This document shows, piece after piece, positions 10,677-31,223 of a stretch of DNA of 32,000 bases. The position numbers and the translations under genes are program-made. The notes under the pieces were generated by a model that saw nothing but the letters and a program-made list of their open reading frames with translations, did not search any database and was not told the DNA's origin. Within the stretch, counting starts at the first letter, position 1. Each line of letters begins with the position of its first letter. The DNA is taken from assembly GCF_000014265.1 (NCBI RefSeq), contig NC_008312.1, positions 330,001 through 362,000 of the forward strand, read 5' to 3'. Source of the stretch: Trichodesmium erythraeum IMS101 (GTDB taxonomy: Bacteria > Cyanobacteriota > Cyanobacteriia > Cyanobacteriales > Microcoleaceae).

Positions 10677-10838
10677 TACTACAACGCTTTTTAATGAACT
10701 ATTACAGGTAATATAGTGGTTGAGAATTGTCATAGGGAACGATAGTAAAGCTATCTCTGGGCAACTTTTCTTTTGCCACATTTAAGATTAAACAGTCCAC
10801 TACAATAATGCTTAAAAAATTTTACGAGGTTTAAAATT

Positions 10839-11948
10839 ATGCAATTACTTGAGTTTCCAAGTTATCACTTCCCTACTGGAGTAACTGGGCGATTAAAAGA
10901 AGTTTTATTAGACATTGTTGAGAGGGTAGAAATTTCCTCTGATTTTTCTATTCGTCATCCTGAGTATAAACCTTTAGATTTGCCTGCTGAGGTGGTTGCT
11001 CGTTTTCAGGCATTGCCAAAACAAATGCGGGATAAATATCTGAGTCTACAATTGCGTAGTTTTCTCTATGGTATCTATTATAATGGTTCGATGCAAACTT
11101 CCCTGGCATTGGATAGTGAGGAAAATAGTCGCCCATTAGATTTGGAGAATAATACTTTTCTTGGGGTAGAGATGGAGTTTTATATTCAGTTAGAAGAAAG
11201 TAATAGGGGAGAGGGGTATTTTGATTCTGGTTGGTCGGTGTTGAGGGAGGAAACTGATGGTGCTTTAGCTGTTACTAAGAATGGTTTGCGACTGCATATT
11301 GAACGAGAAAAGCATCTTCAAGAATCTCAGAAAGCTGCTGTTGTGGGGGATTCGGTAGCAATTCGGATGCCTAATAATTTGGTGCAAAATGGTTTCTATA
11401 TGGCGGTTGGTAATTTGGGTAGTCAGAGTCAGGTAGAGTCGGAAAGTCAATCTGGAGTGGTGCGAGTTTATTTTAACTTTACTTCTGAAGGTGCAGTAGT
11501 GGTCATGGGTAGTTTGACAGAGAAATTAAATGAGGTTGCTGTTCCTTTTAGTTTTAAAGTGTTGTATGCTCGTGATTATTATGATCGCTACGATGCTGGG
11601 GTACTCTATTTTGATAAGGATAATTATGAGTTGGTGAGGCAGGTTTTGTCGGATGTTTATGGGGAGAATAAATCTTATTTTAAATCAGAAATACCTTTAT
11701 TTACCATGGAGTTGGCACCGGGTTTGGGATTAGCTGAAGAGCCAGACAGGAAGTTTGCTAGTCAGGAAAGTTTTGGTATGAATAGGTGTCAGATGATAGC
11801 AAATGGATTATTGAAAGCTTGGGACCAGGGGGATAATTCGACTGAAGGAAGAATGAGGGCAATTTTGGAGCAATTTTCTTTATTGGGAATTGATTTGCAG
11901 CGTCCTTATTTGAATGCTAATTCTGAGGATGTTTATAGGGTGATATAG
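10839..11948 (+). CDS. HopA1-family-like protein (candidate phospho-Ser/Thr lyase partner of the kinase)
   Basis: 369-aa ORF directly downstream of the kinase on the same strand. Its size and sequence pattern (IRHPEYKPL, LRSFLYGIYYNG, LVQNGFYMA, GVLYFDK, GLGLAEEP..FGMNRC) match my recollection of cyanobacterial proteins annotated as the T3SS effector HopA1 family. This is not verifiable here. Confidence 0.5.
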   Translation: MQLLEFPSYHFPTGVTGRLKEVLLDIVERVEISSDFSIRHPEYKPLDLPAEVVARFQALPKQMRDKYLSLQLRSFLYGIYYNGSMQTSLALDSEENSRPLDLENNTFLGVEMEFYIQLEESNRGEGYFDSGWSVLREETDGALAVTKNGLRLHIEREKHLQESQKAAVVGDSVAIRMPNNLVQNGFYMAVGNLGSQSQVESESQSGVVRVYFNFTSEGAVVVMGSLTEKLNEVAVPFSFKVLYARDYYDRYDAGVLYFDKDNYELVRQVLSDVYGENKSYFKSEIPLFTMELAPGLGLAEEPDRKFASQESFGMNRCQMIANGLLKAWDQGDNSTEGRMRAILEQFSLLGIDLQRPYLNANSEDVYRVI

Positions 11949-12750: not shown

Positions 12751-12924
12751 ATGGCTAACATTAACATCTCTGATTTAAGTCCTGCTGGTGCGGACTTGTT
12801 CTTAGATTCTGAAAGCTACCTCAATGATTTGACTGAGGGAGAAATGACGAATACATTGGGTGGTAAAGGTAGCTTCACCTTTTGTGGTAAACGGATCTCA
12901 TGGAGTATCTGCTGGGGGTACTGA
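12751..12924 (+). CDS. double-glycine-leader peptide precursor A (57 aa; core KGSFTFCGKRISWSICWGY)
   Basis: Hand translation gives MANINISDLSPAGADLFLDSESYLNDLTEGEMTNTLGG|KGSFTFCGKRISWSICWGY*. AAGGAG lies 10 nt upstream. The leader fits the C39 consensus L(-12)xxxE(-8)M(-7)xxTxGG. The leader is conserved with only synonymous changes in the paralog at 13694. The ORF is below the track's size cutoff. Confidence 0.85.
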   Translation: MANINISDLSPAGADLFLDSESYLNDLTEGEMTNTLGGKGSFTFCGKRISWSICWGY

Positions 12925-13693: not shown

Positions 13694-13852
13694 ATGGCTA
13701 ACATTAACATCTCTGATTTAAGTCCTGCTGGTGCTGACTTGTTCTTAGATTCTGAAAGCTATCTCAACGATTTGACTGAGGGAGAAATGACGAATACATT
13801 AGGAGGATCGAGGTGGTGGAACAGATTAAAAGATTGGTTTCGTACACGTTAA
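13694..13852 (+). CDS. double-glycine-leader peptide precursor B (52 aa; core SRWWNRLKDWFRTR)
   Basis: Hand translation gives MANINISDLSPAGADLFLDSESYLNDLTEGEMTNTLGG|SRWWNRLKDWFRTR*. It has the same AAGGAG SD as gene A. Six nucleotide differences from the gene A leader were counted, all synonymous third-position changes. Confidence 0.85.
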   Translation: MANINISDLSPAGADLFLDSESYLNDLTEGEMTNTLGGSRWWNRLKDWFRTR

Positions 13853-15346: not shown

Positions 15347-17230
15347 CTACAACTCTAAACCTCCTTTTTGTAACTTCTTAAACGGGTCAAGAATAAAATC
15401 AATCAAAGGACGCTGACGCACAACAACCTCAGCCGTTGCCGTATCCCCCGGACGCAAAACAACACACTCATTAGCAGTAGGAATACAATACTCATCCAAC
15501 TCAACCTTTAACTCATAAATAGCCACATTTCCCTCAGCAGTTTCCTGCATTTTTGAAGTAGGAGAAATCTCTTTCAACCATCCCCCAACTACACCATAAT
15601 CCTGAAAAGGATAGGCATCAAACTTCATTTTTACCTCCATTCCTTCCCTTAACGAACCACTTTCTGTAGTTGCCATATCCGCCTTTAATAAAAGACTCGT
15701 TTCCCTAGGAGCTATCTCCACTATCATCTCTCCTTGTTGCACAACATCTCCCACACCTTTGATGGGGAAATTAAAAATAGTACCTCCCTGTTGCGCCCTA
15801 ACTACTCGTTGCTCTAACTGAAAATTTAAAGAATCAATCTCTTTATTTGTCTGAGCAATTTCTCCTTGAATACTAACAATTTGACTATCCATACTCTGAA
15901 GTTGCTCTTGTATTTTTGATATAGCAATTTTCCCAGAATGAGTAATAGTTTTAGAGCTATTTTCTTGCTCATTCAAACGTAATTCAGCCTGCTTAATATC
16001 TGCCTTAACTTGATTAATTACCATTTCATAACTACTCTTTTGTTCTGCCAAACGTAACTCAGCTTGCTCAATATCTGCCTCCCCTTGATTAATAATTCTT
16101 TCATAACTACCTTTTTGCTCTGCCAAACGTAATTCAGCTTGCTTAATATCTGCCTTTCCTTGATGAATAACCCTCTTATAACTACCCTCTTGCTCTTCTA
16201 TTCGTAATTTAGCTTGCTCAATATCTGCTTGACTTTGCTCCAACATTCTTTGTCTTTCTCGCCCAATATTTTCATGCTCAACTAATTGTATTTCCGTCAC
16301 CACACCCTGGTCCCAAAGACCACGATAACGTTCTACTTCTTTCATAGCCTTTTCCCAGCGAATTTCTGATAATTGATAAGCAATTTGACTATCTTTTAAT
16401 TGTCGTTTTGCTTGATTGAATTGAGCCATTTTTTCTTCTTTCTGTAAACTCAACGCTCTCTTAAGAGCTCCCAAATTTTCTTCTGCTTGATAAACTTGTA
16501 CTAATTTTTCTTCCCTTTGTAAATTTAATGTTCTTCTGAGAGCCGCCAAATTTTGTTCTGCTTGATGAACTTGGGTCAGTTTTTCTTGTTCCTGTAAATT
16601 GTACATTGTTTTAAGAGATTGTGCGTTTTGTCGTGCTTGCCCCACTTGAGCTAATTTTTCTAATTTTTGAGATTCATTTTGTCGTTCTTGGGTACGAAGT
16701 TCAATTTCCAATTGATTTTTTTGTTGTTGAATCTTACTAAGTCGATTTTTCTGATTTTGCAGTTGAATTTGGAGTTGAGCAAGTCGGTCATGAATAGGGC
16801 GAGATTCTAATTCTATTAAAATATCTCCAGCCTTAATTTTATCCCCTTGTTTAACATAAACTTTCTCAACTTTTGCCGTTTGTGTATATGCGGTAAACGT
16901 TAAATTTAGCTCTTGTTTAAAAGTACCACCTTGAGGTTCTAAACGTCCTCTAGCTGAACCAGTTTCATCTACTTGAGAAAACATTCCCCAAGGGAGAGCG
17001 ATCGCTACAAATCCTATTAAAAGATATAGTAATCCTCGTGTCCAACGTTGTGGTAAAGCATCTAATAATTCTTTAGTAGCAAAAGACCAATCATCAACAG
17101 ATTCATCTAACTTTGTAACTGCTGTTTCTTGATAGTTAGAATTCTTCAAACTTTTTTCTAATGTTACTAAGTCAACCTCTAAAGGTTTATGACCATTTGA
17201 CTCTAAAGTTAAGTTCAATTCTTGTGGCAT
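15347..17230 (-). CDS. HlyD-family periplasmic adaptor (membrane fusion protein) with an expanded coiled coil
   Basis: 627-aa ORF with an N-terminal TM segment (GLLYLLIGFVAIALPWGMF). A lipoyl-like segment VYVKQGDKIKAGDILIELES pairs with the C-terminal GGTIFNFPIKGVGDVVQQGEMIVEIAP. The central coiled coil is long and Q/E/K-rich. Confidence 0.9.
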   Translation of the reverse strand: MPQELNLTLESNGHKPLEVDLVTLEKSLKNSNYQETAVTKLDESVDDWSFATKELLDALPQRWTRGLLYLLIGFVAIALPWGMFSQVDETGSARGRLEPQGGTFKQELNLTFTAYTQTAKVEKVYVKQGDKIKAGDILIELESRPIHDRLAQLQIQLQNQKNRLSKIQQQKNQLEIELRTQERQNESQKLEKLAQVGQARQNAQSLKTMYNLQEQEKLTQVHQAEQNLAALRRTLNLQREEKLVQVYQAEENLGALKRALSLQKEEKMAQFNQAKRQLKDSQIAYQLSEIRWEKAMKEVERYRGLWDQGVVTEIQLVEHENIGRERQRMLEQSQADIEQAKLRIEEQEGSYKRVIHQGKADIKQAELRLAEQKGSYERIINQGEADIEQAELRLAEQKSSYEMVINQVKADIKQAELRLNEQENSSKTITHSGKIAISKIQEQLQSMDSQIVSIQGEIAQTNKEIDSLNFQLEQRVVRAQQGGTIFNFPIKGVGDVVQQGEMIVEIAPRETSLLLKADMATTESGSLREGMEVKMKFDAYPFQDYGVVGGWLKEISPTSKMQETAEGNVAIYELKVELDEYCIPTANECVVLRPGDTATAEVVVRQRPLIDFILDPFKKLQKGGLEL

Positions 17231-17560: not shown

Positions 17561-20287
17561 CTACCCAACATCTAACTGTTGACGATTCAAATAATAATAA
17601 TGTCCCCGTTTCGCCATCAACTCTTCATGATTTCCCTGCTCAATTAATACCCCCCGATCCAACACTAAAATTAGATCAGCATTTCTCACAGTAGATAAAC
17701 GGTGAGCAATAATTAACGAAGTGCGACCCTGGAGAATAGTATTCAAATTCCTCTGAATAATTCGCTCCGACTCAACATCCAGATGAGAAGTAGCCTCATC
17801 AAAAACCAAAAAACAGGGTTTTCCTAACAAAGCACGAGCGATCGCTAATCTTTGCCGTTGACCACCAGACAACAAACCCCCACCTTCCCCTATCTGAGTT
17901 TCATAACCCATCGGCAACCGTTGAATAAACTCATCAGCACCAGCTAACCTAGCAGCATCCACAATATCTTCAAGAGTTGCAGAAGGACAAGCCATAGTCA
18001 AATTTTCCCGAATAGTGCCACCAAATAAAAAAGTATCCTGATCAACCACACCCACTTTATTCCGCAGGGATGGCAACGAAATCGCCGTGATATCGTAACC
18101 ATCAATCAAAATTTTCCCATCAGTAGGCGGATACAACCCCAAAACCAACTTAGAAATTGTTGTCTTCCCAGACCCAGAGCGCCCCACCAAAGCCACAGTT
18201 TGTCCAGCTTTCACCTCAAAACTCAGATTTTCCAAAACATTAATATCGCTTTCTGGGTGGTAACGGAAAGTCACATTATCAAAAATAATATTACCCCGTA
18301 GCTCCGTCAAATACTGACGTGCCTGAGATTGTAAATCTTCCTCAGGCTCAGTATCAATCACATCATTAATACGCTCCATGGCAATAACCACCTCCTGTAA
18401 CTGATTCCACAAAACCGTCAGTCGCTGAAAAGGGCTAATCACATTACCTATCAACATATTAAAAGCCACCAACTGCCCAATAGTTAACTCTCCCTGAATA
18501 ACCAACCAAGCTCCAAACCATAGTAACCCCGTCGTTACTAAAGATTCAATAGTTAAGCTAAACATTTGCAGTCGGTTACCCATCACCTGTCCAGAAAAGT
18601 TTTTTCTGATTGACTTATTCAGAAGTTCCTCCCACCGCCAGCGTACTGTTTGCTCAACTGCCAGAGATTTCACAGTATTTACACCAGTCAAAGATTGAAT
18701 CAGATAACTACTTTCTTCAGCTAGAGCGGCAAATATTTCTCTAGAGATTTTTTGGAGAAAGGGTGTAGCAATAAGTGCTAATAAAAAAAACGGTGGCACA
18801 ATAACCAATGCTAGCAAAGCCATCTTCCAGCTATACCAGAACATTAGCCCTACATAAACAAATACCGTCAGCAAATCTAAGACAATAGAAAGAGCTTCTC
18901 CAGTTAAGAAATTCTCAATTTTCCGGTTTTCTTGAACCCGAGCAATAATATCCCCCACATAACGAGACTCAAAAAAACTCATGGGTAGTCGGAATGTGTG
19001 GCGAATAAACCCAACGATCATGGCTATATGTACTCTATTAGCCGTGTGATCAAGGAGATATTGTCGCAAACCCGTCATAGCCACCTGAAATAAGCCAAAG
19101 AGCACTAAACCTAATCCCACTGCTGTTAGAGTTAGAGTGCTACCTTGAACAACTACCCGGTCTAGTAGTAGTTGGGTAAATAGAGGGGTAATAAGTCCAA
19201 ATATTTGAATTACTAGAGAAGTGATAAATACTTCCAATAGAACTTGTCCATGAGGACTGACCAACTCAAAAAATTGCCAGAAAGGAGTAGTGGTATCTTT
19301 AAGTTTTTTGATTAATGCAGTAGGTTGTAGGAGTAAAGTATAGCCAGTCCAACCAGCTTTAAATTCTGGATAAGTAAGATGGCGTTGACCAATAGCGGGG
19401 TCAGCGATGATCACCTGTTTATGGGTGACCTCATAGACTACCACATAATGTTTACCTTCCCAGTGAGCGATCGCTGGTAATTTTTGTTTAGCTAATTGAT
19501 CAAGACTTGCCTTAACTGGTCTGGTAGAATATCCAATGCTTTCTGCAGCAGCAGATAATCCTCGAAGTGAAGCACCGTTACGGTCTACATTAGCAATATC
19601 GCGCACCCTATTCACGCTGAAATTTTTGCCCCAGTAACGAGCAACCATGACTAAACAAGCCGCACCACAGTCAGAACCGCTTTGTTGGGCAAAGAATGGA
19701 TAGCGTCTGGTAATACGCTGCCAGAGATGACCTACTCTTTGGGTGGGACTAGGGAAATAGGCTTTGTTAATAGCTTTTTGTCCTATAACCTCTGGTTGCT
19801 CATATTCAGTCCTGTTAAATTCTGGCAGATTTTTACCCAAAGAATTGGGAATTTCTGGCTCCGCTTTTTTCTGTAGAGCATTAAGTTTGAGAGCAACTTG
19901 GTAAAGATGTTCTCGAATTTGAGGATGTTTTTTAATTAGTGGGAGTAGAGCTTCTCGAGAGAGATAGGAAAGTTTGAGATTTACTGATGCTCTAGCAGAG
20001 TAGGATAAAAAAGAGTTATCTGGAAATAGGGTAGATTCCCCAAATGAAGCTCCAGCAACAAGGGTAGTCATTAATTCACCCTCAGTATCTAAGAGTCTAA
20101 CTTTGCCTTTGGTGATTATATATATGCCGGTTTGAGCATCTGCTGTTTGCCAAAATTGACCGACTTTGGGCGTTAAATTTTCCATATTTTTCAAGCAACT
20201 TTCTATTTCCTGCTGTGAAAGTTGATATCCTAAGACATCACTAAGCTGCTCTTGAGTTAAACTTGGAGTGGATGCAGTTTTAACCAT
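17561..20287 (-). CDS. cyclic-nucleotide-binding domain / C39 peptidase / ABC transporter (bacteriocin-type, HetC-like exporter)
   Basis: 908-aa ORF.
- cNMP-binding signatures: FGESTLF and SARASV.
- C39 catalytic Cys context QQSGSDCGAACLVMV, and His in AIAHWEGKHYVVVYEV.
- TMD.
- Walker A GRSGSGKTT, signature LSGGQRQRLAIARAL, Walker B LVFDEATSHLD. Confidence 0.92.
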   Translation of the reverse strand: MVKTASTPSLTQEQLSDVLGYQLSQQEIESCLKNMENLTPKVGQFWQTADAQTGIYIITKGKVRLLDTEGELMTTLVAGASFGESTLFPDNSFLSYSARASVNLKLSYLSREALLPLIKKHPQIREHLYQVALKLNALQKKAEPEIPNSLGKNLPEFNRTEYEQPEVIGQKAINKAYFPSPTQRVGHLWQRITRRYPFFAQQSGSDCGAACLVMVARYWGKNFSVNRVRDIANVDRNGASLRGLSAAAESIGYSTRPVKASLDQLAKQKLPAIAHWEGKHYVVVYEVTHKQVIIADPAIGQRHLTYPEFKAGWTGYTLLLQPTALIKKLKDTTTPFWQFFELVSPHGQVLLEVFITSLVIQIFGLITPLFTQLLLDRVVVQGSTLTLTAVGLGLVLFGLFQVAMTGLRQYLLDHTANRVHIAMIVGFIRHTFRLPMSFFESRYVGDIIARVQENRKIENFLTGEALSIVLDLLTVFVYVGLMFWYSWKMALLALVIVPPFFLLALIATPFLQKISREIFAALAEESSYLIQSLTGVNTVKSLAVEQTVRWRWEELLNKSIRKNFSGQVMGNRLQMFSLTIESLVTTGLLWFGAWLVIQGELTIGQLVAFNMLIGNVISPFQRLTVLWNQLQEVVIAMERINDVIDTEPEEDLQSQARQYLTELRGNIIFDNVTFRYHPESDINVLENLSFEVKAGQTVALVGRSGSGKTTISKLVLGLYPPTDGKILIDGYDITAISLPSLRNKVGVVDQDTFLFGGTIRENLTMACPSATLEDIVDAARLAGADEFIQRLPMGYETQIGEGGGLLSGGQRQRLAIARALLGKPCFLVFDEATSHLDVESERIIQRNLNTILQGRTSLIIAHRLSTVRNADLILVLDRGVLIEQGNHEELMAKRGHYYYLNRQQLDVG

Positions 20288-20400: not shown

Positions 20401-21063
20401 TTAAATAACTAAAGTGTTGAAAGTTAACGTTTCCAAATCAGAGTTAACATTTTGCTCTGAGGTCAGGTCGCGAATTGCAATGTTTTTTCTCTTGGCATTT
20501 TGACTAATAGTTTCATCAGTTTGAGCTGATAATGTTTTAGTAGATAATCCCATCTTTTTGATTAAACGGTTAATATGGCGATCGCTAAATTCTACCCCAA
20601 ATTCTTTAGCTAAATGTTTCCCTAAGCAATTAGCAGTCCACCGCTCAAATGCATAACCACATTTCTTAGGACTATTAGTTAATAACTCTTTCAACCGCTC
20701 TAAATATTGTTCATTAACTTCTTGAGGACGACCTATAGGGTGATTCTTCCATTGTTGAGCTTGACCAGACTGAGCAATAAATATCCAGTATCTAGCTGTA
20801 GCTAGAGAACAACCTATAGCCTCACGGATCTGGGTCTGGGTTTTGCCTTCATCTGCTAGAAGCATGATTTCTATTCTCTGGCGATATTGCCTGGTCAACT
20901 TCTTATCTAGACTTTTTTCTAACAATTTACGCTGAAAAGACGTCAAGCAGCTGCCGTGTAAACTTGACTCATTCATTGTGATTTTGGATTTTGAGTGATT
21001 GTATAACATAGGTTTATAATTATTTTTTGACACTCCAGTTTTTCTCACAGAGATATTTCTCAA
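20401..21063 (-). CDS. stand-alone HTH protein resembling the N-terminal DNA-binding half of IS630-type transposases (possible locus regulator); start codon uncertain
   Basis: 220-aa ORF. It reads LLADEGKTQTQIREAIGCSLATARYWI ... GRPQEVNEQYLERLKELL ... YAFERWTANCLGKHLAKEFGVEFSDRHINRLIKKMGLS, a homeodomain-like plus winged-helix pattern. No DDE half follows; the ABC gene starts 113 nt downstream. An alternative start MNESS lies at about 20976. Confidence 0.6.
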   Translation of the reverse strand: MRNISVRKTGVSKNNYKPMLYNHSKSKITMNESSLHGSCLTSFQRKLLEKSLDKKLTRQYRQRIEIMLLADEGKTQTQIREAIGCSLATARYWIFIAQSGQAQQWKNHPIGRPQEVNEQYLERLKELLTNSPKKCGYAFERWTANCLGKHLAKEFGVEFSDRHINRLIKKMGLSTKTLSAQTDETISQNAKRKNIAIRDLTSEQNVNSDLETLTFNTLVI

Positions 21064-22377: not shown

Positions 22378-23694
22378 ATGAATAAAGAAATATTTGAATA
22401 TATTTATTCCTCTCAATTAACAAAGAATGACGAAAAAACACTAAAGTTATTATTTGCTAATAAGCAACGTAAAGAAATTGCTAAAGCCCTCAAGTGTGTA
22501 GAGACAAATGTTAGTCACAAATTCAAAGCGATCGCTAAAAAATTCAACTATTTAGAATCTAATCAGAATTGTAAAGCAACAGAATACTTAGTTAAGATAT
22601 TTAGCCAATATAAACCTGATATGGTTGATCAACAACTAATTAAATCTTATGCTTCTTATCCAATTTTAATGCCAGATAAACCTGAAGAACCAGACTCCCC
22701 TTTTTATATAGAACGTCATCAGATTCCACGTCGTTCTGTTGAATCTCAATGCTACGAGACTATAGAAAGACCAGGTTCTTTAATCAGAATAAAAGCACCC
22801 AAAAAAATGGGTAAAACTTCTCTGATCAATCAGATACAAGCCAAAGCAAATGACAATAATTATATTTCTCAGTATCTGAGATTCGATCTTTTGATTGAGC
22901 CCCCAAATATCAGTAGTGTTAATAATTTTATTAAAGCATTTAATAAAATCATCAAAAGTCGGTTCCCAGATGTTTCAAAAGGCTCTAATTGGGATAATAA
23001 TAATGCTAAAATTTCTTGTACTAAAGATTTAAAATCACTATTGCTGAATTTACAGAAAAACTTAGTTTTAATATTAGATGAAGTGGATGAAATTTTCCAA
23101 TATCCAGAAATAACTAAAGATTTTTGTGGGATGTTAAGACATTGGTATGAAGAAAGTAATAATGTCAAAATTTGGAAAAATTTACGAATAGTAATTGCTT
23201 ATTCTACAGAATATCATGGCAAATTAGATATTTATCAATCTCCTTTTAATGTAGGCAGCTCAATAGAATTAAAGGAGTTTACAAAAGAAGAAGTAACTCG
23301 ATTAATATTCTTATACCAACTTGACCCCAAAATAGTGACTGATTTAATGTCTATGGTAGGAGGGCATCCTTATTTAATTAGGTTAGCTTTATATAGAATG
23401 TCTCAGGAAGAATTGACAATTGAAAAATTCTTAAAAGAAGCCCCCACTGATAGTGGAATTTATCGAGACCATTTCAGCAGACATTTAGAAACTATAGACA
23501 AAAGGTCAAAAATTAAAACAGTTTTTCAAGAAATATTAAAAGCTAATGAACCAGTCAGTTTTTCTGATAAAAATAGAGAGGTACGTCAGCTAGAAGCTAT
23601 GGGATTAATTAAAATTGAAGGTAATAAGGCTAAAACTGGTTGTCAGTTATATCAAAAATATTTTGGAGAGTTTTTATTAGGCATTAGGTTTTAG
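22378..23694 (+). CDS. LuxR/sigma70-region-4-like HTH fused to an AAA-like (AAA_35-type) NTPase domain
   Basis: 438-aa ORF.
- N-terminal LTKNDEKTLKLLFANKQRKEIAKALKCVETNVSHKFKAIAKKF resembles a LuxR-type HTH.
- Walker A APKKMGKTS and Walker B LVLILDEVDE.
- SPFNVGSSIELKEFTKEEV and GGHPYLIRLAL are typical of cyanobacterial AAA-like domain proteins. Confidence 0.65.
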   Translation: MNKEIFEYIYSSQLTKNDEKTLKLLFANKQRKEIAKALKCVETNVSHKFKAIAKKFNYLESNQNCKATEYLVKIFSQYKPDMVDQQLIKSYASYPILMPDKPEEPDSPFYIERHQIPRRSVESQCYETIERPGSLIRIKAPKKMGKTSLINQIQAKANDNNYISQYLRFDLLIEPPNISSVNNFIKAFNKIIKSRFPDVSKGSNWDNNNAKISCTKDLKSLLLNLQKNLVLILDEVDEIFQYPEITKDFCGMLRHWYEESNNVKIWKNLRIVIAYSTEYHGKLDIYQSPFNVGSSIELKEFTKEEVTRLIFLYQLDPKIVTDLMSMVGGHPYLIRLALYRMSQEELTIEKFLKEAPTDSGIYRDHFSRHLETIDKRSKIKTVFQEILKANEPVSFSDKNREVRQLEAMGLIKIEGNKAKTGCQLYQKYFGEFLLGIRF

Positions 23695-23935
23695 GTTTTA
23701 GGTATTAAGCGTTAGATTTAAAAATTAACAAACTTTACTCTTTTTTATTTTGACTGAATTTGTTCCATTAAACCATGTAGAATAATGCAAATTTATTGAC
23801 ATTTATTTAATAGGTTTTAGGTATTATTTATTAGGCGTTATATTTAAAAATCAACAAACGTAACTATTTTTTATTTTGACTGATTTGTTCCATTTAACGA
23901 TGTAGAATTATGCCAAATTATTCAAAGTTTTTTTA
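23693..23935. repeat. two units of about 120 bp in tandem, plus a partial third (about 23940-23985), in the intergenic region
   Basis: Both units start TAGGTTTTAGGTATTA and share ..TATTTAAAAATCAACAAAC..TTTTTTATTTTGACTGA.TTTGTTCCATT.AAC.ATGTAGAAT.ATGC. Read by eye. Confidence 0.75.
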
Positions 23936-24085
23936 AGACGACTTTGATTTAAGGTATCAGATTTAAAGTTAACAAATTGATAATGTATTCTTACTACCAA
24001 AATCATCATTTTGGTCTGTCGTTTTAATAATTCTTGAATTCCATAAGACCCCGTCCTTAAGAAGGGAGCTAAAATTATTTCTGTT

Positions 24086-24117
24086 AACCTGAAACCTGAA
24101 ACCTGAAACCTGAAACC
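24086..24117. repeat. heptanucleotide tandem repeat (AACCTGA)x4.5, STRR-like
   Basis: AACCTGAAACCTGAAACCTGAAACCTGAAACC lies about 130 nt upstream of the ATG at 24244. A related inverted heptamer, AGGTTTTAGGTTTTAGGTATT, sits at 23686-23706 over the stop of the upstream gene. Confidence 0.85.
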
Positions 24118-24243
24118 AACTAAAACTTAACATCTGAATTAGTGCTAATGGTTAGATATTAACCCTTCAACTCCCAAGGAACTTCAGATCAGTAAAACCT
24201 TGCTGGGAGGCGAGGACATCAAATATTTATTAATGAAATTATT

Positions 24244-26607
24244 ATGTATCATGATACTGGAGGAAGCTTATCAGCAGACGACCCGACTTATGTAGAAAGG
24301 AAACAAGATAGAGAACTATTGGAAAAACTCCTAAAAGGAGAATATTGTTATGTGTTTAATGCTCGTCAAATGGGTAAGTCTAGTTTGCGGGTAAAAGTTA
24401 TAGATAGATTAACACATCAATTAAGTTCCCAAGGTTGCCAATGCATCTCAATTGATATGAGTATGTTGTCTGATTTTTCGATACCAAAAGAATCTTGGTA
24501 TGATGGTTTTTTAATTGAGCTATTAGATAGATGTGACTTAGAAAATAGTAGCAATTATCAAGACTGGATAGCTACTCATCGAAACTTAAAAATTAATAAT
24601 CCTCAGCGTTGCAAACTGTTTATTGAAGAAATTTTATTTATTAATTTTCCTACTCAGAAAATATATATTTTTCTTGATGAAATTGATACATTGGGAAAAT
24701 CTTATTTTAAACAAGAATTTTTAGGTTTTATTCGGTCTTGTTATAATCGCCGTGCTGAGGATAAAAATTCTGATTATCATCGATTAGTTTTTGTTTTTTT
24801 TGGTGCAGTTACTCCAGGAGATTTAATTCGAGATATAAGACAGACTCCTTTTAATATTGGCTATGGAATTGAGTTAACTGAATTAAGTTTTTTAGAAACC
24901 AAGAAAAAATTAATTCAGGGATTAGAAGAATTTGTAGAAAAGCCAGATATTGTGTTAAAAAAAGTTTTTGATTGGACTGGAGGCCAACCTTTTTTAACTC
25001 AAAAAAGTTGTCAAATTATTGTTGATTATGCTGATACTACTCAAGTAGATGTTGATAGTTTGCTAGAAAAAAATATTGTCAAAGATTGGGAAGATAAAGA
25101 TAATCCTATTCATTTAAAACATATACGGGATTATTTACTTAGTGACATTGAATTACTGAGACTATATCAAAAGGTTCTTAAGAAGGGAGAAGTTAAATTT
25201 AATAATAGTAAAGTACAGATGTCTTTAAAGTTATCAGGTATAGTTCTAAAAAAACAAGATAAATTAGTTGTTTTTAATAAGATTTATCAGAAAGTTTTTA
25301 ATCCAGATTGGGTTGAGGAACAGTTAGCAAACTTAGAAAATAATCTGGATTTACCTAAACTTAAAAGATTAAGTTCAAGTTGGGTTATTGTTAGTTTAGT
25401 ATGGGTATTAGCCATTATTATGAGAGCTTTAGGTTGGCTCCAACCATTTGAGTTAAATGAGTTTGATCGCTTAATGCAATGGCGACCCAAAGAAAAACGA
25501 GACCCTAATATTTTAATTGTTGAAGCTACACAAACAGACATTAAAAAATATGGTAAAGGTGGGACTTTAAAAGATAAGATATTGGCTGATGTAATAAAAA
25601 AAATAAATACTTTACAACCGGCAATTATTGGTTTAGATTTGTGGCGGGAGAAAGCTTTAGGTTCTGAGGCTGATTATCAAAATTTATTGACTCTTTTGGA
25701 AAATAATCAGAAAATAATTGCTGTTTGTAGTACCAGTGAAAATAGCCCAAATAAATCTGGTACAAGACCTCCTGAAGGAGTGCCAAAAGAACGTTTAGGT
25801 TTTACTGATGTAGTTCTTGATAATGGTCAAGTTGACATTGTCCGTCGCCACTTAATGTTTATGGGTTTAGAAGAGAAAGATCCTTGTAAAACACAGTATT
25901 CATTGAGTACTATAGTGGCCTTAGATTTTTTGGAAATTAAAGGAGTTAAAGCCAAAAATATTTCCTCGGAGAGTATTAGAATTGGTAATGTTACTTTCAG
26001 GAAACTGAGAAAAGGAAATGGTATTTATGAAAAACTTGACGATGGTGGATTTCAAATTTTACTTAACTATAGAAATTCTCATCATATAGATAATAGAGTA
26101 GCTCAAAAAATTAGTATTTCGGAAGTTTTGGATGGGAACATTAATGATTCTTTAGTTAAGGATAAAATTGTCATTATTGGCATTACAGACCGTACTTCTG
26201 GTGACAAGTTTTATACTCCTTATAGTAATGTTCAGCCTCCTAATCAAAAGCAAATGCCTGGTGTTATTATACACGCACACAAGGTCAGTCAAATTATTAG
26301 TGCAGTTTTATATGGCAGACCTTTGATTATTTTTTGGAGTTGGTGGGTAGAATGGCTATGGATTTTTGCTTGGTCTTTTTTGAGTTATGTGATCGGACAT
26401 TTTTTTCGAGGTTTTTTATTTTTCTTATTTGTAGGAGGAAATATTATTGTTTTATATTCGGTTAGTTTGTTTTTTCTAGTTCAAGGTTTTGTAGTTCCAT
26501 TAGTACCATCTATTTTGGTCTTAATTGTGAATACTGTCATTATTTTCGTTGATGATTCTCACTTTTTTAAGACCAGGAAGCTCCCAGGACCGGTAGAAGA
26601 GGAATAG
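24244..26607 (+). CDS. AAA-like (AAA_35-type) NTPase fused to a membrane-anchored CHASE2 sensor domain
   Basis: 787-aa ORF.
- Walker A NARQMGKSS, Walker B IYIFLDEIDT, FNIGYGIELTELS and GGQPFLTQ are paralogous to 22378-23694.
- A TM segment at aa ~379-399 is followed by CHASE2-like LQPFELNEFDRLMQWRP, ILIVEATQTDI and PGVIIHAHKVSQII.
- Three C-terminal TM helices follow (aa ~695-770).
- No kinase, cyclase or protease output domain is present. Confidence 0.7.
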   Translation: MYHDTGGSLSADDPTYVERKQDRELLEKLLKGEYCYVFNARQMGKSSLRVKVIDRLTHQLSSQGCQCISIDMSMLSDFSIPKESWYDGFLIELLDRCDLENSSNYQDWIATHRNLKINNPQRCKLFIEEILFINFPTQKIYIFLDEIDTLGKSYFKQEFLGFIRSCYNRRAEDKNSDYHRLVFVFFGAVTPGDLIRDIRQTPFNIGYGIELTELSFLETKKKLIQGLEEFVEKPDIVLKKVFDWTGGQPFLTQKSCQIIVDYADTTQVDVDSLLEKNIVKDWEDKDNPIHLKHIRDYLLSDIELLRLYQKVLKKGEVKFNNSKVQMSLKLSGIVLKKQDKLVVFNKIYQKVFNPDWVEEQLANLENNLDLPKLKRLSSSWVIVSLVWVLAIIMRALGWLQPFELNEFDRLMQWRPKEKRDPNILIVEATQTDIKKYGKGGTLKDKILADVIKKINTLQPAIIGLDLWREKALGSEADYQNLLTLLENNQKIIAVCSTSENSPNKSGTRPPEGVPKERLGFTDVVLDNGQVDIVRRHLMFMGLEEKDPCKTQYSLSTIVALDFLEIKGVKAKNISSESIRIGNVTFRKLRKGNGIYEKLDDGGFQILLNYRNSHHIDNRVAQKISISEVLDGNINDSLVKDKIVIIGITDRTSGDKFYTPYSNVQPPNQKQMPGVIIHAHKVSQIISAVLYGRPLIIFWSWWVEWLWIFAWSFLSYVIGHFFRGFLFFLFVGGNIIVLYSVSLFFLVQGFVVPLVPSILVLIVNTVIIFVDDSHFFKTRKLPGPVEEE

Positions 26608-26893
26608 GGAGAAAGAAAAGAGTATAATAACTAAGTTCAAATACTTTAAGTCTTCAAAAAAATGTATTTAGAGAATACATTTTTTCTCCCACAAAAGCCT
26701 ATTAAATACTTATACATAATATGCTTATTTTGTCAAGCTTTATTTTCATAAAAAATATTTGTAAAGCATAGCTTGGAAAGAGGGAAGTTAGATGAAGACA
26801 TTTTATTTATCCAGGCCATTTTGGTAAATTAAATTCTTCCATCTATTGAACAAATTGGTATTACAAAAAGTTTTTTTTGAGGGATAAAATTCT

Positions 26894-27769
26894 ATGAAAT
26901 ATAAACAAGTTATTATTTGTGCTTTGGGATTATTGGTAGGAATGACTCAACTAGTTTGGGGGGAATTTCAAAACCCACAAACAAGTAGACCAGGGAACAA
27001 ACGAGATCGGGGGAATCACATGACAGAAAGTAGACCAGAGCAGAGGAAAAAGAAGCCACCAGTTAATATGCCAATAAAGCATAAACCGTTTGAAAGCCCA
27101 CCAATAAGTAGACCAGGGAACAGAGGAGATGCGGGGCATCAGGCGATAGAACCTCATGGAGATGGACGGACTAGAGGTCCTAATAATCCTGCTGAATTAT
27201 GTCTTCAAATGGAAAAGCCTCTTTTGGCTCTCATTCCTCAAAGCAACTTCGGATACACTTTAGCAAGTCATCCGACTTTTTGGTTATATCTTCCTGGCTA
27301 TAACAACTCTATTAATTTCACTTTGAAGGATGAAGATACTGGAAAGGAAATTTATCAAACTAAGTTTAATGTTGAATCTGAACGGGGAATTATTAGTTTG
27401 AAGTTACCTTCTGCTGCACCGCGTTTACAGGTAGGAAAAGAATATCGTTGGCAATTTGTTTTTAACTGTAGAAATGAGTCCAAGAATTTATCTGTTGAAG
27501 CAGTGGTTGCGCGGAAGGCAACTACCGAGAGTTTGACTAGTCAGTTGAGCTCGGCTACAACTGTGATGGAAATGATAGATATTTATGGGAAAAATGGTTT
27601 GTGGCATGAGACTATTACGACATTAGGAAACTTGCGCCGGAGTTATCCTAATAATGTAGCGATCGCCACTAGATGGAATAGTTTATTGGAGCAAGATGGT
27701 ATCCGTTTTCCAGACTATGATTTGACTAAGACCGAGATTCAAAATTGTTGTAATGTTTCCGATCAGTAG
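26894..27769 (+). CDS. secreted DUF928-family protein
   Basis: 291-aa ORF with a signal-peptide-like N-terminus (VIICALGLLVGMTQLVWG). A basic Gly/Pro/Arg-rich segment ends in GDGRTRG. PLLALIPQSNFGYTLASHPTFWLYLPG and YRWQFVFNC resemble the DUF928 core as I recall it. GAGGGA SD upstream. Confidence 0.6.
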   Translation: MKYKQVIICALGLLVGMTQLVWGEFQNPQTSRPGNKRDRGNHMTESRPEQRKKKPPVNMPIKHKPFESPPISRPGNRGDAGHQAIEPHGDGRTRGPNNPAELCLQMEKPLLALIPQSNFGYTLASHPTFWLYLPGYNNSINFTLKDEDTGKEIYQTKFNVESERGIISLKLPSAAPRLQVGKEYRWQFVFNCRNESKNLSVEAVVARKATTESLTSQLSSATTVMEMIDIYGKNGLWHETITTLGNLRRSYPNNVAIATRWNSLLEQDGIRFPDYDLTKTEIQNCCNVSDQ

Positions 27770-27775
27770 TACTAA

Positions 27776-27791
27776 CAGGACTTACGCAGAA
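27776..27791 (+). repeat. solo copy of the CAGGACTTACGCA terminal-repeat motif
   Basis: CAGGACTTACGCAGAA matches the first 13 nt of the IS terminal inverted repeat at 28003. Confidence 0.5.
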
Positions 27792-28316
27792 TTATTATAT
27801 CTAGTAGGGTTTAATGACTATTAACCTCTACAGGCAGTGTATTATCTACAAGTTGGTATAAGTCTTATTTCCCTAAGTAGCTTGAGTCAAAAACGATTTT
27901 CGTAGCCTGGGTCGTAGATAAGTTACAGACAACATTCAGTGGTATATGTTTGAAATACCGAAGCTAGTTCCAAAGCTCAAAATATGACTATTGATAAATA
28001 ACCAGGACTTACGCAAGGACCCTATGTATAGCGCATATTTAATAGAGCGATCGCCTACTATTGGTGGCCTTATTACCATAAAAACCGAAATAACTTAAGG
28101 CTTAGGTATAGTTAATTTTTCTAAGCTCTATAAGTGTTGCTCTATGTAAATAAATCTTGCCCAACAACTCTTGCCCAAAGAATAATTTTATTTTTGGTTT
28201 GAGTTAATAATATGAATTTTAACTACCTTGATTATTATCAATAGTTACTAAATTATCATACAAATTATACCATCAAAAATTAATCAAATTACTTAGAAAA
28301 TATTAGCCATAATAAA

Positions 28317-28677
28317 ATTAATCGTTATTTCAGAACGTAATCTTTAAATTCAGAATACTTATGGTCACATTTGAGAGAAAAAATTATCCCAAATACAGCA
28401 GTATATCTAATTTTTAATGACACAGTAATTAACAAAAAATACGCGAATAAAATTTAACTTGTGTGACGGCAATATAGTAGTAATTAAAATCAAGTAATTA
28501 ATCGTTATTTCAGAACATAATCTTTAAATTCAGAATACTTATGGTCACATTTGAGAGAAAAAATTATCCCAAATACAGCAGCATATCTAATTTTTAATAG
28601 CATAGTAATTAACAAAAAATACGCGAATAAAATTTAACTTGTGCGACGGCAATATAGTAGCAATTAACATCAAGTAA
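28317..28677 (+). repeat. exact 180-nt-period tandem duplication inside the dead transposase gene
   Basis: 28321-28500 and 28501-28680 align position-for-position, with about eight substitutions by eye. Confidence 0.9.
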
Positions 28678-28709: not shown

Positions 28710-29048
28710 TTGAACCCCAAAAATGAACAATTTTTAGTATTAAATTACCGCATATATAATCCAGATAGTAACAAAAAAACTAAAATACACCATGTTAAAG
28801 AGATGAAATTTAATGTAATAAATCAGAAGAATTTACCATTTAAAACTGTATTAATAGATAGTTGTTATGCAACACAAAGATTAATAGCATTAATAGATAA
28901 TATGCGAAAAATTTATTATTGCTCTGAAAAATTAATCCAGAGCATAGATGATACTTGTGGTGCAGAAAAATTTGCTACATTAAGTTGGAATGAATCAGAA
29001 AGAAAATCAGGTAAAATAATAAAAATTAAAGGAATTATTTTGAGATAA
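28710..29048 (+). pseudogene. central fragment of the IS4/IS701-like DDE transposase
   Basis: The 112-aa ORF reads YRIYNPDSNKKTKIHHVKEM...LPFKTVLIDSCYATQRLIALIDNMRKIYYC...GKIIKIKG. This resembles cyanobacterial DDE transposases (..VLMDSWYA...L...I...GK.YYCPLK). The flanking frames are broken. Confidence 0.6.
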
Positions 29049-29582
29049 AAAAATCAATCTATTCTGGGCTACTATTTCTGCCAAGAGGACAGAATACATT
29101 GTCACTAATGACTTAAGTCAATCTTCTACAGATGATGTAGAATTCGAGTAGCAAACTAGATGGAAAATCGAAGAATTTTACACCAGAATCAAGTATTTAA
29201 AAGAAATATAATTTTGTTAATGTCATCTGGCAAAAATTCTAAAAAATCATATTGCTTACCCTATGTTTATCTGGAATCATTTGAAAAAAATAGCTTATAT
29301 TTTGGGTAAAACTATTTATCAGCTCAAACATCAATTATTATCTAAGTATCTAGTATCTCAACTTAAATATCCTGCAATTAAAACGACAGCTATTTAAGTT
29401 TTTTTCAATGAAAAACCAATTATAGCGATCGCTTAATTTTTCATCCGCTATATATAATGTCCTTGCGTAAGTCCTGAGAATAAAGTTGCCAGAAGTTTTC
29501 GCGATATTCGTTTTACCAATTAAGGTTAGAAACATTCCTAGTGATTTTTATCAAGAACTTCCTCTTTCACTCAGCTATCAAA

Positions 29583-31223
29583 TCAAGTTACTAACGAGGC
29601 AGATTCTAAATTTACTATTAATTTTAAACCAAACTCTTTTTCAAAGGCCTCCTTCTTATTTTCCAAACTCCACAATTCTAAAGCACAATCATCTTTAGGG
29701 TTAGCAGGCCGTAACCAGAGATGAAATTCCTGTTGCTTTGTGTTTAACCAACAGGTCAAATTAGCTATCGCCCCTTTTTGTCGCCTATCTAAAGCTACCG
29801 CTAAACGTAACAATGAACTCAACTGAGACACCATTTCTTGATATCTTTTGGGTAAAATTTGATAATGGTCGTGTTTTTTCTTGCATAAACTCTTGCGGTG
29901 ATAACGAGCTAAATTAGCAATAACTTCAATTTCAATTTGAGTATACCCCAATAACTCCCCATTTCTGATCAAATAGTAGGAATGTTTATGATGTTCTGAA
30001 TGATTTACATATATACCACAATTATGCAAAATTGCTGCTGACCATAACAATTCTCGTTCCTCACTTCCCCAGTTATGCAGAACTCCCATAGTTTGGTCAA
30101 ATAAATATAACGCCCAAAAAGCAACCCGTTCGCTATACTCCAAATTAACCTGGTATTTTTGCGCAATTTTTAGAGTATTTCGTTGGCGAATTGAACTTTG
30201 GAAACGAAGGTGATCCTCAATCAAACCATGATTCAACATCCAATCAACTATTACCCCCTCTCGCAAACTGCTTTCACACACAGTCACCGACTCCATCTCT
30301 AATAAACTCATTGCTTCGTGTAACACTAAAGCACCCGCCAAAATAATTTCTGCTCGCTTTTCGGACATTCCCAGAATTTCTCGTCTTTTAGAAATAGGTA
30401 ACTTCCTCAACTTATTAACCAACTCCTCTAATTCTGTCAAACTAAACTGATAACCACCCAGGGGAGCTGGTACATTACCCAATTTTTCATAAGCATTAAT
30501 AGTCGCTAAAGCTTCAATAGTACCAGCAGTTCCGACTAACTGAGGTTTTTCACCTTTCTTGATATTAGCTAATATGTTTTTGGTCGGGCGTTCTAATAAG
30601 CCTCTAATGTAAGCTTGCAGATAGGCAAACTCACTCTTACTAACGGGATTTGTGGTAACAAATTCTTTAGTCAGACGTACTGCACCTACTTTTGTACTAC
30701 TTAGAGTTCTCAGTGTATCACTATCACCTAAGATCAACTCTGTGGAACCTCCACCAATATCAATAATAACATGGGGTTGGTTATTAAATTCCATTGCTGA
30801 AAGTACCCCTAGATAAATTCGTCGTGCTTCTTCTTGACCAGATATCAAGTCAACATATAGGTTTAACTCATCAGCTATTCTATTGAGAAATTCTTTACCG
30901 TTAGGTGCTTCTCTTACAGCACTAGTAGCAACTGTAATGATTTGTTTAGCATTAGCACTTTTAGCAATTTGTTGGAAACGCTCTAAAGTAGCGATCGCTC
31001 TATCCATCACTTCTGGTTTTAAGTTACCTTTCGTGCCGCACTCTCCTAGTCTTACTGTTTCTTTATCTTGGTCAATAATAGTAAAAGTCGGCAAATTAGG
31101 ATCAATTTTTACTACAACCAAGTGCAACGAATTTGTACCAATATCTATTGCTGCTAATATCGGGTTTTGGCCTGCTAGTGGAGCAGGAAATCTAACTAAA
31201 GGAACTGATGTAATCATATACAA
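29583..31223 (-). CDS. ppx: Ppx/GppA-family phosphatase (exopolyphosphatase / pppGpp phosphohydrolase) with a C-terminal HD-like domain
   Basis: 546-aa ORF. It has the ASKHA motifs AAIDIGTNSLHLVV and IIDIGGGSTELIL, and a C-terminal HNCGIYVNHSEHHKHSYYLI. Confidence 0.9.
   Translation of the reverse strand: MYMITSVPLVRFPAPLAGQNPILAAIDIGTNSLHLVVVKIDPNLPTFTIIDQDKETVRLGECGTKGNLKPEVMDRAIATLERFQQIAKSANAKQIITVATSAVREAPNGKEFLNRIADELNLYVDLISGQEEARRIYLGVLSAMEFNNQPHVIIDIGGGSTELILGDSDTLRTLSSTKVGAVRLTKEFVTTNPVSKSEFAYLQAYIRGLLERPTKNILANIKKGEKPQLVGTAGTIEALATINAYEKLGNVPAPLGGYQFSLTELEELVNKLRKLPISKRREILGMSEKRAEIILAGALVLHEAMSLLEMESVTVCESSLREGVIVDWMLNHGLIEDHLRFQSSIRQRNTLKIAQKYQVNLEYSERVAFWALYLFDQTMGVLHNWGSEERELLWSAAILHNCGIYVNHSEHHKHSYYLIRNGELLGYTQIEIEVIANLARYHRKSLCKKKHDHYQILPKRYQEMVSQLSSLLRLAVALDRRQKGAIANLTCWLNTKQQEFHLWLRPANPKDDCALELWSLENKKEAFEKEFGLKLIVNLESASLVT

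Follow-up and report, generated by a model that had tools for sequence, protein, structure and literature searches.

A candidate two-component NLR-like switch with a CHASE2 receptor and a DUF928 accessory in cyanobacteria

In a 32,000-nt stretch of the Trichodesmium erythraeum IMS101 genome (NC_008312.1, positions 330,001 to 362,000 of the forward strand; hereafter the window), three consecutive genes encode an AAA_35 NTPase with an N-terminal helix-turn-helix (HTH) domain (g1), a membrane protein in which a related NTPase is joined to a CHASE2 domain (g2), and a secreted DUF928 protein (g3). We found that g1 and g2 belong to two NTPase clades, A1 and A2, whose genes are neighbours across cyanobacteria and whose members lack a sensor and an effector region, respectively. 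The gene pairing and the DUF928 counts reported below identify the A1-A2 pair as the conserved core of this system and DUF928 as an addition that accompanies CHASE2. The unit extends beyond the trio: it is a two-protein A1/A2 system of which the CHASE2 trio is one variant. We consider it moderately probable that the Trichodesmium trio specifies an NLR-like "split STAND" switch made of two components, together with a periplasmic accessory.

Two paralogous NTPases with complementary deficits

An earlier note on this DNA, made from the sequence alone, had described three co-oriented genes, and open reading frames (ORFs) for all three are present on the forward strand where it had placed them (Table 1). 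The AAA_35 family (PF14516; gathering score 27 bits) matches residues 99-430 of g1 (E = 2.1e-98, 329.6 bits) and residues 7-353 of g2 (E = 6e-27, 94.8 bits). Against hidden Markov models (HMMs) of the two clades that were built in this analysis, g1 scored 482 bits with A1 and 56 bits with A2, and g2 scored 538 bits with A2, 70 bits with A1 and 587 bits with a model of its own CHASE2 type. The two NTPase domains align by BLASTP with 24% identity over 221 aa (E = 8e-7) and, judged by sequence, are real but distant (old) paralogs, as the earlier note had claimed in calling the AAA-like domain shared. Both proteins keep the Walker A lysine and the acidic residues of Walker B, which are invariant or near-invariant in the family alignments (Walker A APKKMGKT and Walker B LVLILDE in g1; NARQMGKS and IYIFLDEID in g2), and the g2 P-loop lacks the first glycine, a feature that is invariant across its family. 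The other motifs proposed earlier as common to both fared unevenly: GGHPYL and GGQPFL are present in g1 and g2, respectively, and SPFN(V/I)G..IEL is found in g1 (SPFNVG) but not in g2, which has TPFNIG, with threonine in place of serine.

The predicted structure of g1 (AlphaFold2; pLDDT 90.9, pTM 0.79) was compared with known folds using Foldseek (TM-scores 0.4-0.65). The nearest matches of its AAA_35 module were the archaeal Walker ATPases PAB2304 (2qen, E = 7.5e-10) and SSO1545, followed by Orc/Cdc6 and then by the NLRs RPP1 and WRR4A, the Dark apoptosome and Avs4, all of which are oligomerising switch AAA+ proteins. A sequence search of g1 and a g2-family profile, both run against the PDB, returned nothing usable. 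STAND NTPases, as reportedly delimited by Leipe et al. in 2004, have a nucleotide-binding domain, then a helical lid that bears a GxP motif, and a winged helix; by sequence, GGHPYL and GGQPFL fit the GxP motif. The modelled arrangement of nucleotide-binding domain, lid and winged helix in g1 is of a STAND/Orc-like class, compatible with a place either inside STAND or beside it.

At its N-terminus g1 carries a LuxR/GerE-type HTH. As a single sequence it stays below the Pfam cut-off for GerE (PF00196; 17.6 bits for the full protein and 20.2 bits for the N-terminus alone, cut-off 23.5), and the LuxR-like assignment of the earlier note is borne out at the level of the family: a profile of g1-family N-termini matched GerE (1fse, E = 4.9e-9) along with dozens of PDB domains of NarL/LuxR type, NarL, RhlR, VraR and LasR included. 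An HMM of the HTH built from the family also matches genuine REC-GerE regulators. Homologs of g1 are annotated with PF00196, PF08281 or PF26355 (HTH_VMAP-M9) at the N-terminus, the PF26355 labels being existing annotations. The AlphaFold2 model places four helices in this region (residues 3-13, 16-26, 31-38 and 42-55). The protein ends only 8 residues past the AAA_35 match and has no sensor region. Membership of g1 in the MalT family was considered and rejected (NCBIfam MalT, 16.8 bits against a cut-off of 537).

The CHASE2 domain of g2 (PF05226) spans residues 387-714 (E = 7.6e-58, 196.5 bits, cut-off 26.3) and is bounded by a transmembrane helix, TM1, and a bundle of three C-terminal helices (Table 1), as the earlier note had seen. 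Hydropathy places the NTPase part (residues 1-365) in the cytoplasm, together with an 18-aa C-terminal tail that is without an output domain. A CHASE2 sensor in the sense of Zhulin et al. in 2003 is said to have its signalling output (kinase, cyclase, GGDEF or protease) on the same chain; g2 has no such recognised output, only the N-terminal AAA_35 module and the short tail. The phrase "a sensor with no classical output domain" in the earlier note holds for g2 alone and not for the unit, whose output lies on A1. Proteins with the g2 architecture (AAA_35 and CHASE2, ~770-820 aa) are common throughout the cyanobacteria.

When one genome per GTDB species was scanned, at least 598 related stretches came up, from which 80 loci were kept, with cyanobacterial titles wherever the title names an organism; their six-frame ORFs were annotated with the clade-specific HMMs. 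As the patterns used for the search were placed in the NTPase half, the kept set mixes 25 CHASE2-type with 72 non-CHASE2 A2 genes, providing a built-in control. An A1 gene occurred in the locus of 22/22 CHASE2-type A2 genes and of 62/64 other A2 genes, mostly directly upstream of A2 and on the same strand, and anchoring on five diverse A1 homologs revealed an A2 gene directly downstream in 5/5. Adjacency of the pair is kept down to about 38% identity. The complete trio recurs in Calothrix and Pleurocapsa (with the g1 counterpart inverted in Pleurocapsa) and in sampled species-representative loci, in agreement with the synteny that the earlier note had anticipated, and the identical locus was found in four independent marine metagenome assemblies, one of them from TARA Oceans. 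In ten loci, two to four tandem A2 genes accompany one A1, usually downstream of it, an arrangement that fits a shared helper.

The two partners divide their accessory regions sharply. The median N-terminal and C-terminal extensions were 118 and 3 aa in A1 (n = 73) and 5 and 607 aa in A2 (n = 95), so that one partner is always without a sensor and the other always without an effector. C-terminal extensions of ~190-199 aa occur in four exceptional A1 proteins, and the one of these that was scanned with Pfam (in locus L036) is a cyclase. The effector, nucleotide-binding oligomerisation domain (NOD) and sensor repeats that make up a STAND protein in one polypeptide are here split over separate paralogs.

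These data bear on the alternative that the genes act independently, with g1 an autonomous MalT-like regulator sensing a cytoplasmic ligand through its NTPase and g2 and g3 a separate membrane ATPase or sensor. The large intergenic gaps in the window (549 bp between g1 and g2, 286 bp between g2 and g3), the possibility of an own promoter for each gene and the inversion of g1 relative to g2 in Pleurocapsa speak for such independence. We consider it very unlikely, in view of the near-universal adjacency over deep divergence, the strictly complementary absence of sensor and effector regions, the abutting or overlapping of the genes in many other genomes and the lack of any output domain in g2.

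Sensors and effectors also appear to be exchanged as modules. The C-termini of non-CHASE2 A2 proteins are WD40 propellers in most cases, and TPR, PAS or unassigned regions in others. The N-termini of A1 are mostly HTHs of LuxR, sigma-4 (Sigma70_r4) or VMAP-M9 type, with BTAD, CHAT, EAD4 and HTH+TIR as variants, and some A1 proteins add a C-terminal cyclase. In Okeania, an A2-TPR protein ~61% identical to the NTPase half of g2 has as its partner an A1 with 60% identity to g1, indicating that the sensor was swapped on a closely related chassis. By sequence comparison, then, sensors and effectors are interchangeable, a modularity typical of STAND/NLR systems.

Two A2 genes (L058:9929-12901 and L069:9923-12934) encode proteins of about 1000 aa with the order AAA_35(A2)-cyclase-TM-CHASE2, in which the output is built in and an HTH-A1 gene still lies upstream. 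An AAA_35-GGDEF protein (L153:9933-11564, minus strand) adjoins an A1/A2-TPR pair in Okeania.

DUF928 and two-partner secretion genes as companions of CHASE2

The DUF928 domain of g3 (PF06051; E = 6e-53, 179.8 bits, cut-off 26) covers residues 91-269 and follows a signal-peptide-like N-terminus (residues 5-23, by hydropathy and not from a dedicated signal-peptide predictor), in keeping with the secreted DUF928 protein of the earlier note; both the CHASE2 and the DUF928 families matched far above their gathering scores. Family alignments identified conserved cysteines (Cys103, Cys192 and a C-terminal CC) and an invariant arginine (R94) in a G-G-T-R-G-like motif within the disordered linker. In the AlphaFold2 model, pLDDT exceeds 85 over residues ~110-270. 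Foldseek returned weak, generic beta-sandwich matches (the MtxA C-terminal domain at a TM-score of 0.55, LPMO-like folds and FnIII), from which no function can be transferred; as modelled, the fold is a binding-type beta-sandwich and not an enzyme. The disordered linker contains an in-frame duplication (Table 1) that is absent from the closest homologs (239-251 aa, about 40-50 aa shorter).

DUF928 was present in 16/22 CHASE2-type A2 loci, directly downstream and on the same strand in 12 of them, and stood beside none of 59 other A2 genes (p = 2e-12, Fisher). In a metagenome scan anchored on DUF928, which yielded 60 loci, a CHASE2 gene lay directly upstream in 37/60, or in 32/41 when only loci with 1 kb or more of sequence upstream are counted. 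The statement in the earlier note that DUF928 often neighbours CHASE2 is well supported by these counts; the sole mention of such adjacency that we found is a passing one (PMC5587647). Only four of the CHASE2 genes upstream of DUF928 in the metagenome loci were of the A2 type; the others that were sampled comprised CHAT (caspase-like)-CHASE2 genes in 13/13 cases, plus one bare CHASE2. DUF928 is an accessory of CHASE2 generally, mostly of CHAT-CHASE2, and is not specific to the NTPase module. Its occurrence in both the CHAT-CHASE2 and the A2 contexts suggests that CHASE2 and DUF928 form an extracytoplasmic sensing dyad that is plugged into either a protease or an A2 NTPase.

The caspase-CHASE2 architecture itself was noted by Kaur et al. 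2021 (PMC8195603). Loci of that type resemble the CHASE2-type A2 loci in having a cytoplasmic module N-terminal to TM1, a membrane-bounded CHASE2 and then a secreted DUF928 gene, and in the two-partner secretion (TPS) and TPR-CHAT neighbours that both share. They differ in that the cytoplasmic module is a protease able to act directly, whereas the g2 module is an NTPase that has no effector and needs a partner. Upstream of CHAT-CHASE2/DUF928 loci there is often a DUF1822 protein, a sigma-70 region-4 HTH protein of 400-560 aa, or a GerE + NB-ARC protein (Table 1), which echoes the HTH-NTPase theme with a different NTPase. In four metagenome loci (L129, L132, L135 and L144; for example L135:6918-8609), DUF928 follows a REC-GerE response regulator and not a CHASE2 gene.

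Of the CHASE2-type loci, 16/27 had a TPS domain gene beside them, against 0/55 of the other loci (p = 3e-10), and such genes also stood beside 15 of the DUF928-anchored metagenome loci. They are convergent and lie just after DUF928; some carry a fused C-terminal CHAT protease and some have a TPR-CHAT gene beside them. The neighbours that were sampled included no TpsB transporter. The 32-kb window contains no TPS gene and hence represents a minimal form of the module.

These neighbours raise the possibility of a role in conflict, immunity or kin recognition, in which CHASE2/DUF928 would detect TPS-type exoproteins or CHAT proteases that have been secreted, through either their attack or their presence, and A1 would induce a defensive or suicidal programme. 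This proposal concerns biological role and is compatible with a relay from A2 to A1. It draws on the TPS enrichment at CHASE2-type loci and the TPS-CHAT fusions and TPR-CHAT genes among their neighbours, on the death-type or immune effectors of A1 relatives (CHAT, TIR, EAD4, cyclase), and on the fact that DUF928 chiefly accompanies CHAT-CHASE2 proteins. In addition, the family is massively expanded in filamentous cyanobacteria, as are the conflict systems of multicellular bacteria (PMC7159879). Against it, a search of g1-g3 with PADLOC-DB v2 gave no match at E <= 0.001 (only the CARF3 model, at a negligible E = 0.0087 and 13.5 bits), the window holds no TPS, CHAT, TIR or other toxin gene, the module is surrounded there by housekeeping genes, and the commonest A1 output, an HTH, is equally typical of ordinary regulation. 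We regard a conflict role as rather unlikely.

A proposed relay between the two NTPases and its alternatives

Under the split-switch reading, the CHASE2 domain of g2, working with secreted g3, would detect an envelope or extracellular cue, probably a proteinaceous one. The signal would then cross TM1 to the cytoplasmic AAA_35 module of g2 and drive a nucleotide-dependent switch, upon which the activated A2 would recruit or nucleate the sensor-less A1 through NTPase-NTPase contacts to form a hetero-oligomer, much as NAIP recruits NLRC4 or a plant sensor NLR its helper. The A1 oligomer would in turn cluster LuxR-type HTHs, turning target promoters on or off. A published precedent for protein sensing through an accessory envelope protein comes from Sinorhizobium meliloti, whose CHASE2 cyclases perceive uL2, a protein of the plant, by way of NsrA in the outer membrane (PMC13001267). 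With that work, the description of CHASE2 in the earlier note remains good as to its being a sensor and has become slightly dated as to its ligand being unknown. CyaD1, CyaD2 and CyaK of S. meliloti resemble the present case in that a CHASE2 receptor uses an envelope accessory for a protein signal, and differ in having a C-terminal cyclase on the same chain; NsrA, moreover, is an outer-membrane beta-barrel unrelated to DUF928.

The relay from NTPase to NTPase towards a DNA-binding paralog, which the earlier note had proposed, is not proven; the comparative sequence data strongly support it, namely the near-universal pairing, the complementary deficits, the exchange of modules, the loci with several A2 genes per A1 and the co-evolution of the pair. 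Several points weigh against it or against the switch as a whole. The physical interaction of A1 with A2, the direction of signalling, the contact of DUF928 with CHASE2, the signal and the regulon are all inferred. The distance matrices of the A1 and A2 NTPases are correlated (r = 0.86, Mantel p = 0.001, 53 adjacent pairs), which reflects co-inheritance as a unit and not contact, and is expected for any co-inherited pair. The fold matches of g1 are moderate (TM-scores 0.5-0.65), and the best of them are archaeal ATPases of unknown function and not characterised STAND proteins. DUF928 is missing within 10 kb of 6/22 CHASE2-type loci, so that the system does not require g3. For g1, no target promoter or operator emerged, no motif search having been made. 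Lastly, promoter and terminator matches between 21 and 29 kb of the window were at the level of shuffled sequence and are uninformative on operon structure; together with the two intergenic gaps, they leave co-transcription in the window unproven.

The same pairing, complementarity and co-evolution would also be expected under a reversed polarity, in which the membrane-anchored A2 holds A1 off DNA as an NTPase heterodimer until a CHASE2/DUF928 signal frees A1 to homo-oligomerise and bind DNA. Indeed, g2 is membrane-bound and g1 soluble, A1 has a complete NOD that could in principle self-assemble, and the arrangement resembles the membrane sequestration of transcription factors or the holding of MalT by inhibitors. 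Most A2 partners (WD40, TPR) are soluble, however, so that membrane sequestration cannot be the general mechanism, and several A2 genes per A1 better suit several activators than several sequestrators, although the latter are still conceivable. Reversed polarity seems to us unlikely.

Paired NLRs are known from animals (NAIP-NLRC4) and plants (RGA5/RGA4, RRS1/RPS4 and the NRC helper network). As in these pairs, A1 and A2 are conserved, adjacent genes for paralogous NOD NTPases of the same fold class (nucleotide-binding domain, lid and winged helix); one has a sensing region and no executing domain, the other an executing N-terminal domain and no sensing region, and one helper may serve several sensors. 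Unlike them, the present proteins are bacterial, belong to the AAA_35 clade and not to NACHT or NB-ARC, and have as output a LuxR-type HTH in place of CARD, CC or TIR; among the sensors is a transmembrane CHASE2 receptor facing outside, and the A1-A2 interaction is here deduced from genes.

Single-chain regulators offer a second comparison. MalT/LAL and AfsR-type STAND regulators likewise join an NTP-dependent oligomerising NOD to a DNA-binding domain (LuxR-type in MalT, SARP/BTAD in AfsR), and one A1 variant (in L048) is a BTAD-AAA_35 protein like AfsR; they are single chains with their own C-terminal sensor repeats, which g1 lacks, and the HTH of g1 is N-terminal. Antiviral STAND NTPases (Avs, bNACHT) share the effector-NOD-sensor logic and a similar fold, as the Avs4 match indicates, and relatives carry TIR, protease or EAD effectors; Avs and bNACHT proteins differ in being single-chain cytoplasmic sensors of phage proteins. 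The ternary vWA-MoxR-VMAP systems (Kaur et al. 2020, PMC7159879) have in common with the A1/A2 system the HTH_VMAP-M9 domain found on many A1 proteins, as well as EAD4, CHAT, TIR and cyclase domains; unlike those systems, the window has no MoxR, vWA or VMAP-C component among its ORFs. We found no description of the A1/A2 pair in the literature searched, subscription-only papers being outside reach, and this widespread switch is apparently undescribed.

If the relay is true, it would be a bacterial instance of the sensor/helper pairing hitherto described for the NLRs of plants and animals, bearing on the evolution of NLR networks and offering a simple transcriptional read-out for hetero-oligomeric NOD activation. 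It would explain how a CHASE2 receptor without an output domain signals, would provide a tractable genetic handle on CHASE2 (widespread, with almost no known ligands) and on the entirely uncharacterised DUF928, and would unite many cyanobacterial "AAA-like", "WD40" and "CHASE2" proteins, among the related stretches counted above, in one system. In the most far-reaching reading, cyanobacteria would have a counterpart of the sensor/helper NLR network in which different A2 sensors can each set off a common helper A1, equipped in this case with an HTH, the CHASE2 form being the first NLR-like sensor to read an extracellular cue across a membrane. In its boldest version, DUF928 would be a Spaetzle-like pro-ligand or decoy whose linker is cut at R94 by Arg/Lys-specific CHAT proteases that reach the outside through two-partner secretion, so that proteolytic attack outside the cell, or contact with kin, is signalled to the nucleoid. 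We offer this reading as a tentative and rather doubtful one.

Coordinates and further features of the window

Table 1. Positions of the features discussed. Coordinates refer to the window unless the number of another locus (L) precedes them.
Feature	Position	Strand	Basis or remark
g1	22378-23694	+	ORF, 438 aa
LuxR/GerE-type HTH of g1, residues 13-57	22414-22548	+	GerE (below threshold), family profile, AlphaFold2 helices
AAA_35 module of g1: nucleotide-binding domain, helical lid with GGHPYL, winged helix	22672-23667	+	Pfam, motifs, Foldseek
126-bp tandem duplication, 1.9 copies, 86% match	23685-23922		g1-g2 spacer
g2	24244-26607	+	ORF, 787 aa
AAA_35 module of g2, residues 7-353	24262-25302	+	Pfam and motifs
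TM1 of g2, residues 381-399	25384-25440	+	Kyte-Doolittle, 19-residue window, peak 2.29
CHASE2 domain of g2, extracytoplasmic between TM1 and the C-terminal transmembrane bundle	25402-26385	+	PF05226 and hydropathy
Three C-terminal transmembrane helices of g2, residues ~694-769	26323-26550	+	Hydropathy
g3	26894-27769	+	ORF, 291 aa
In-frame duplication in the disordered linker of g3, SRPGN(K/R).. repeated	26966-27151	+	Two 63-nt copies 123 nt apart, 79% identical
DUF928 domain of g3, residues 91-269: Ig/FnIII-like beta-sandwich, then four-helix bundle	27164-27700	+	Pfam, AlphaFold2
cNMP-binding/C39-peptidase ABC exporter	17561-20287	-	
HlyD-type protein	15347-17230	-	
TPS domain proteins	L018:5961-11189, L021:3702-8633, L022:14903-19924	-	CHASE2/DUF928 neighbours
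TPS domain proteins	L011:12375-17436, L101:7820-10546, L139:8614-14164	-	CHASE2/DUF928 neighbours
Genes upstream of CHAT-CHASE2/DUF928 loci	L101:3433-4416; upstream genes of L118, L120 and L122; L136:3-1607		

The spacer between g1 and g2, much longer here than its counterparts elsewhere, contains, besides the 126-bp repeat, for which a duplicated promoter/operator region is one possible role, a perfect (AACCTGA)x4.6 heptamer run at 24086-24117. Rfam and tRNA scans of the window gave no matches.

A C39-peptidase ABC exporter and an HlyD-type protein adjoin the module both in the window and in Pleurocapsa, and were considered as fourth and fifth components. They were rejected, occurring at only 2/27 CHASE2-type against 5/55 other loci; in the window they belong to a separate cluster for the export of double-glycine peptides. 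Two small forward-strand ORFs nearby, at 12751-12924 (57 aa) and 13694-13852 (52 aa), have the same 38-aa leader, which ends in double glycine (MANINISDLSPAGADLFLDSESYLNDLTEGEMTNTLGG), followed by differing core sequences (KGSFTFCGKRISWSICWGY and SRWWNRLKDWFRTR), and are likely substrates of the neighbouring exporter and HlyD-type protein. Between this cluster and the module, a 220-aa ORF (20401-21063, minus strand) matches IS630-family transposases in their N-terminal HTH part alone (NCBIfam, 75 bits, cut-off 100) and is probably a transposase remnant.

Downstream of g3, inverted repeats starting CAGGACTTACGCA (27776-27804, 28003-28054 and 29425-29476) flank a 1.4-kb stretch that contains a 112-aa ORF (28710-29048) and two tandem copies of a 180-bp repeat with 95% match (28316-28677). 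This stretch looks like debris of a miniature inverted-repeat transposable element or an insertion sequence. HIP1 sites (GCGATCGC) are also present. In the window, the A1-A2 pair is followed downstream by a convergent Ppx/GppA phosphatase gene (29583-31223, minus strand), as is the pair in one other locus (L149:10818-12356, minus strand); that genome is unrelated and its A1 only 38% identical, and the shared placement may be chance. Elsewhere in the window (9480-11948, plus strand), an APH/choline-kinase-like phosphotransferase gene is followed by a gene for a protein of the HopA1-effector family (PF17914, E = 7.8e-61), a family that is unexpected in a free-living cyanobacterium.

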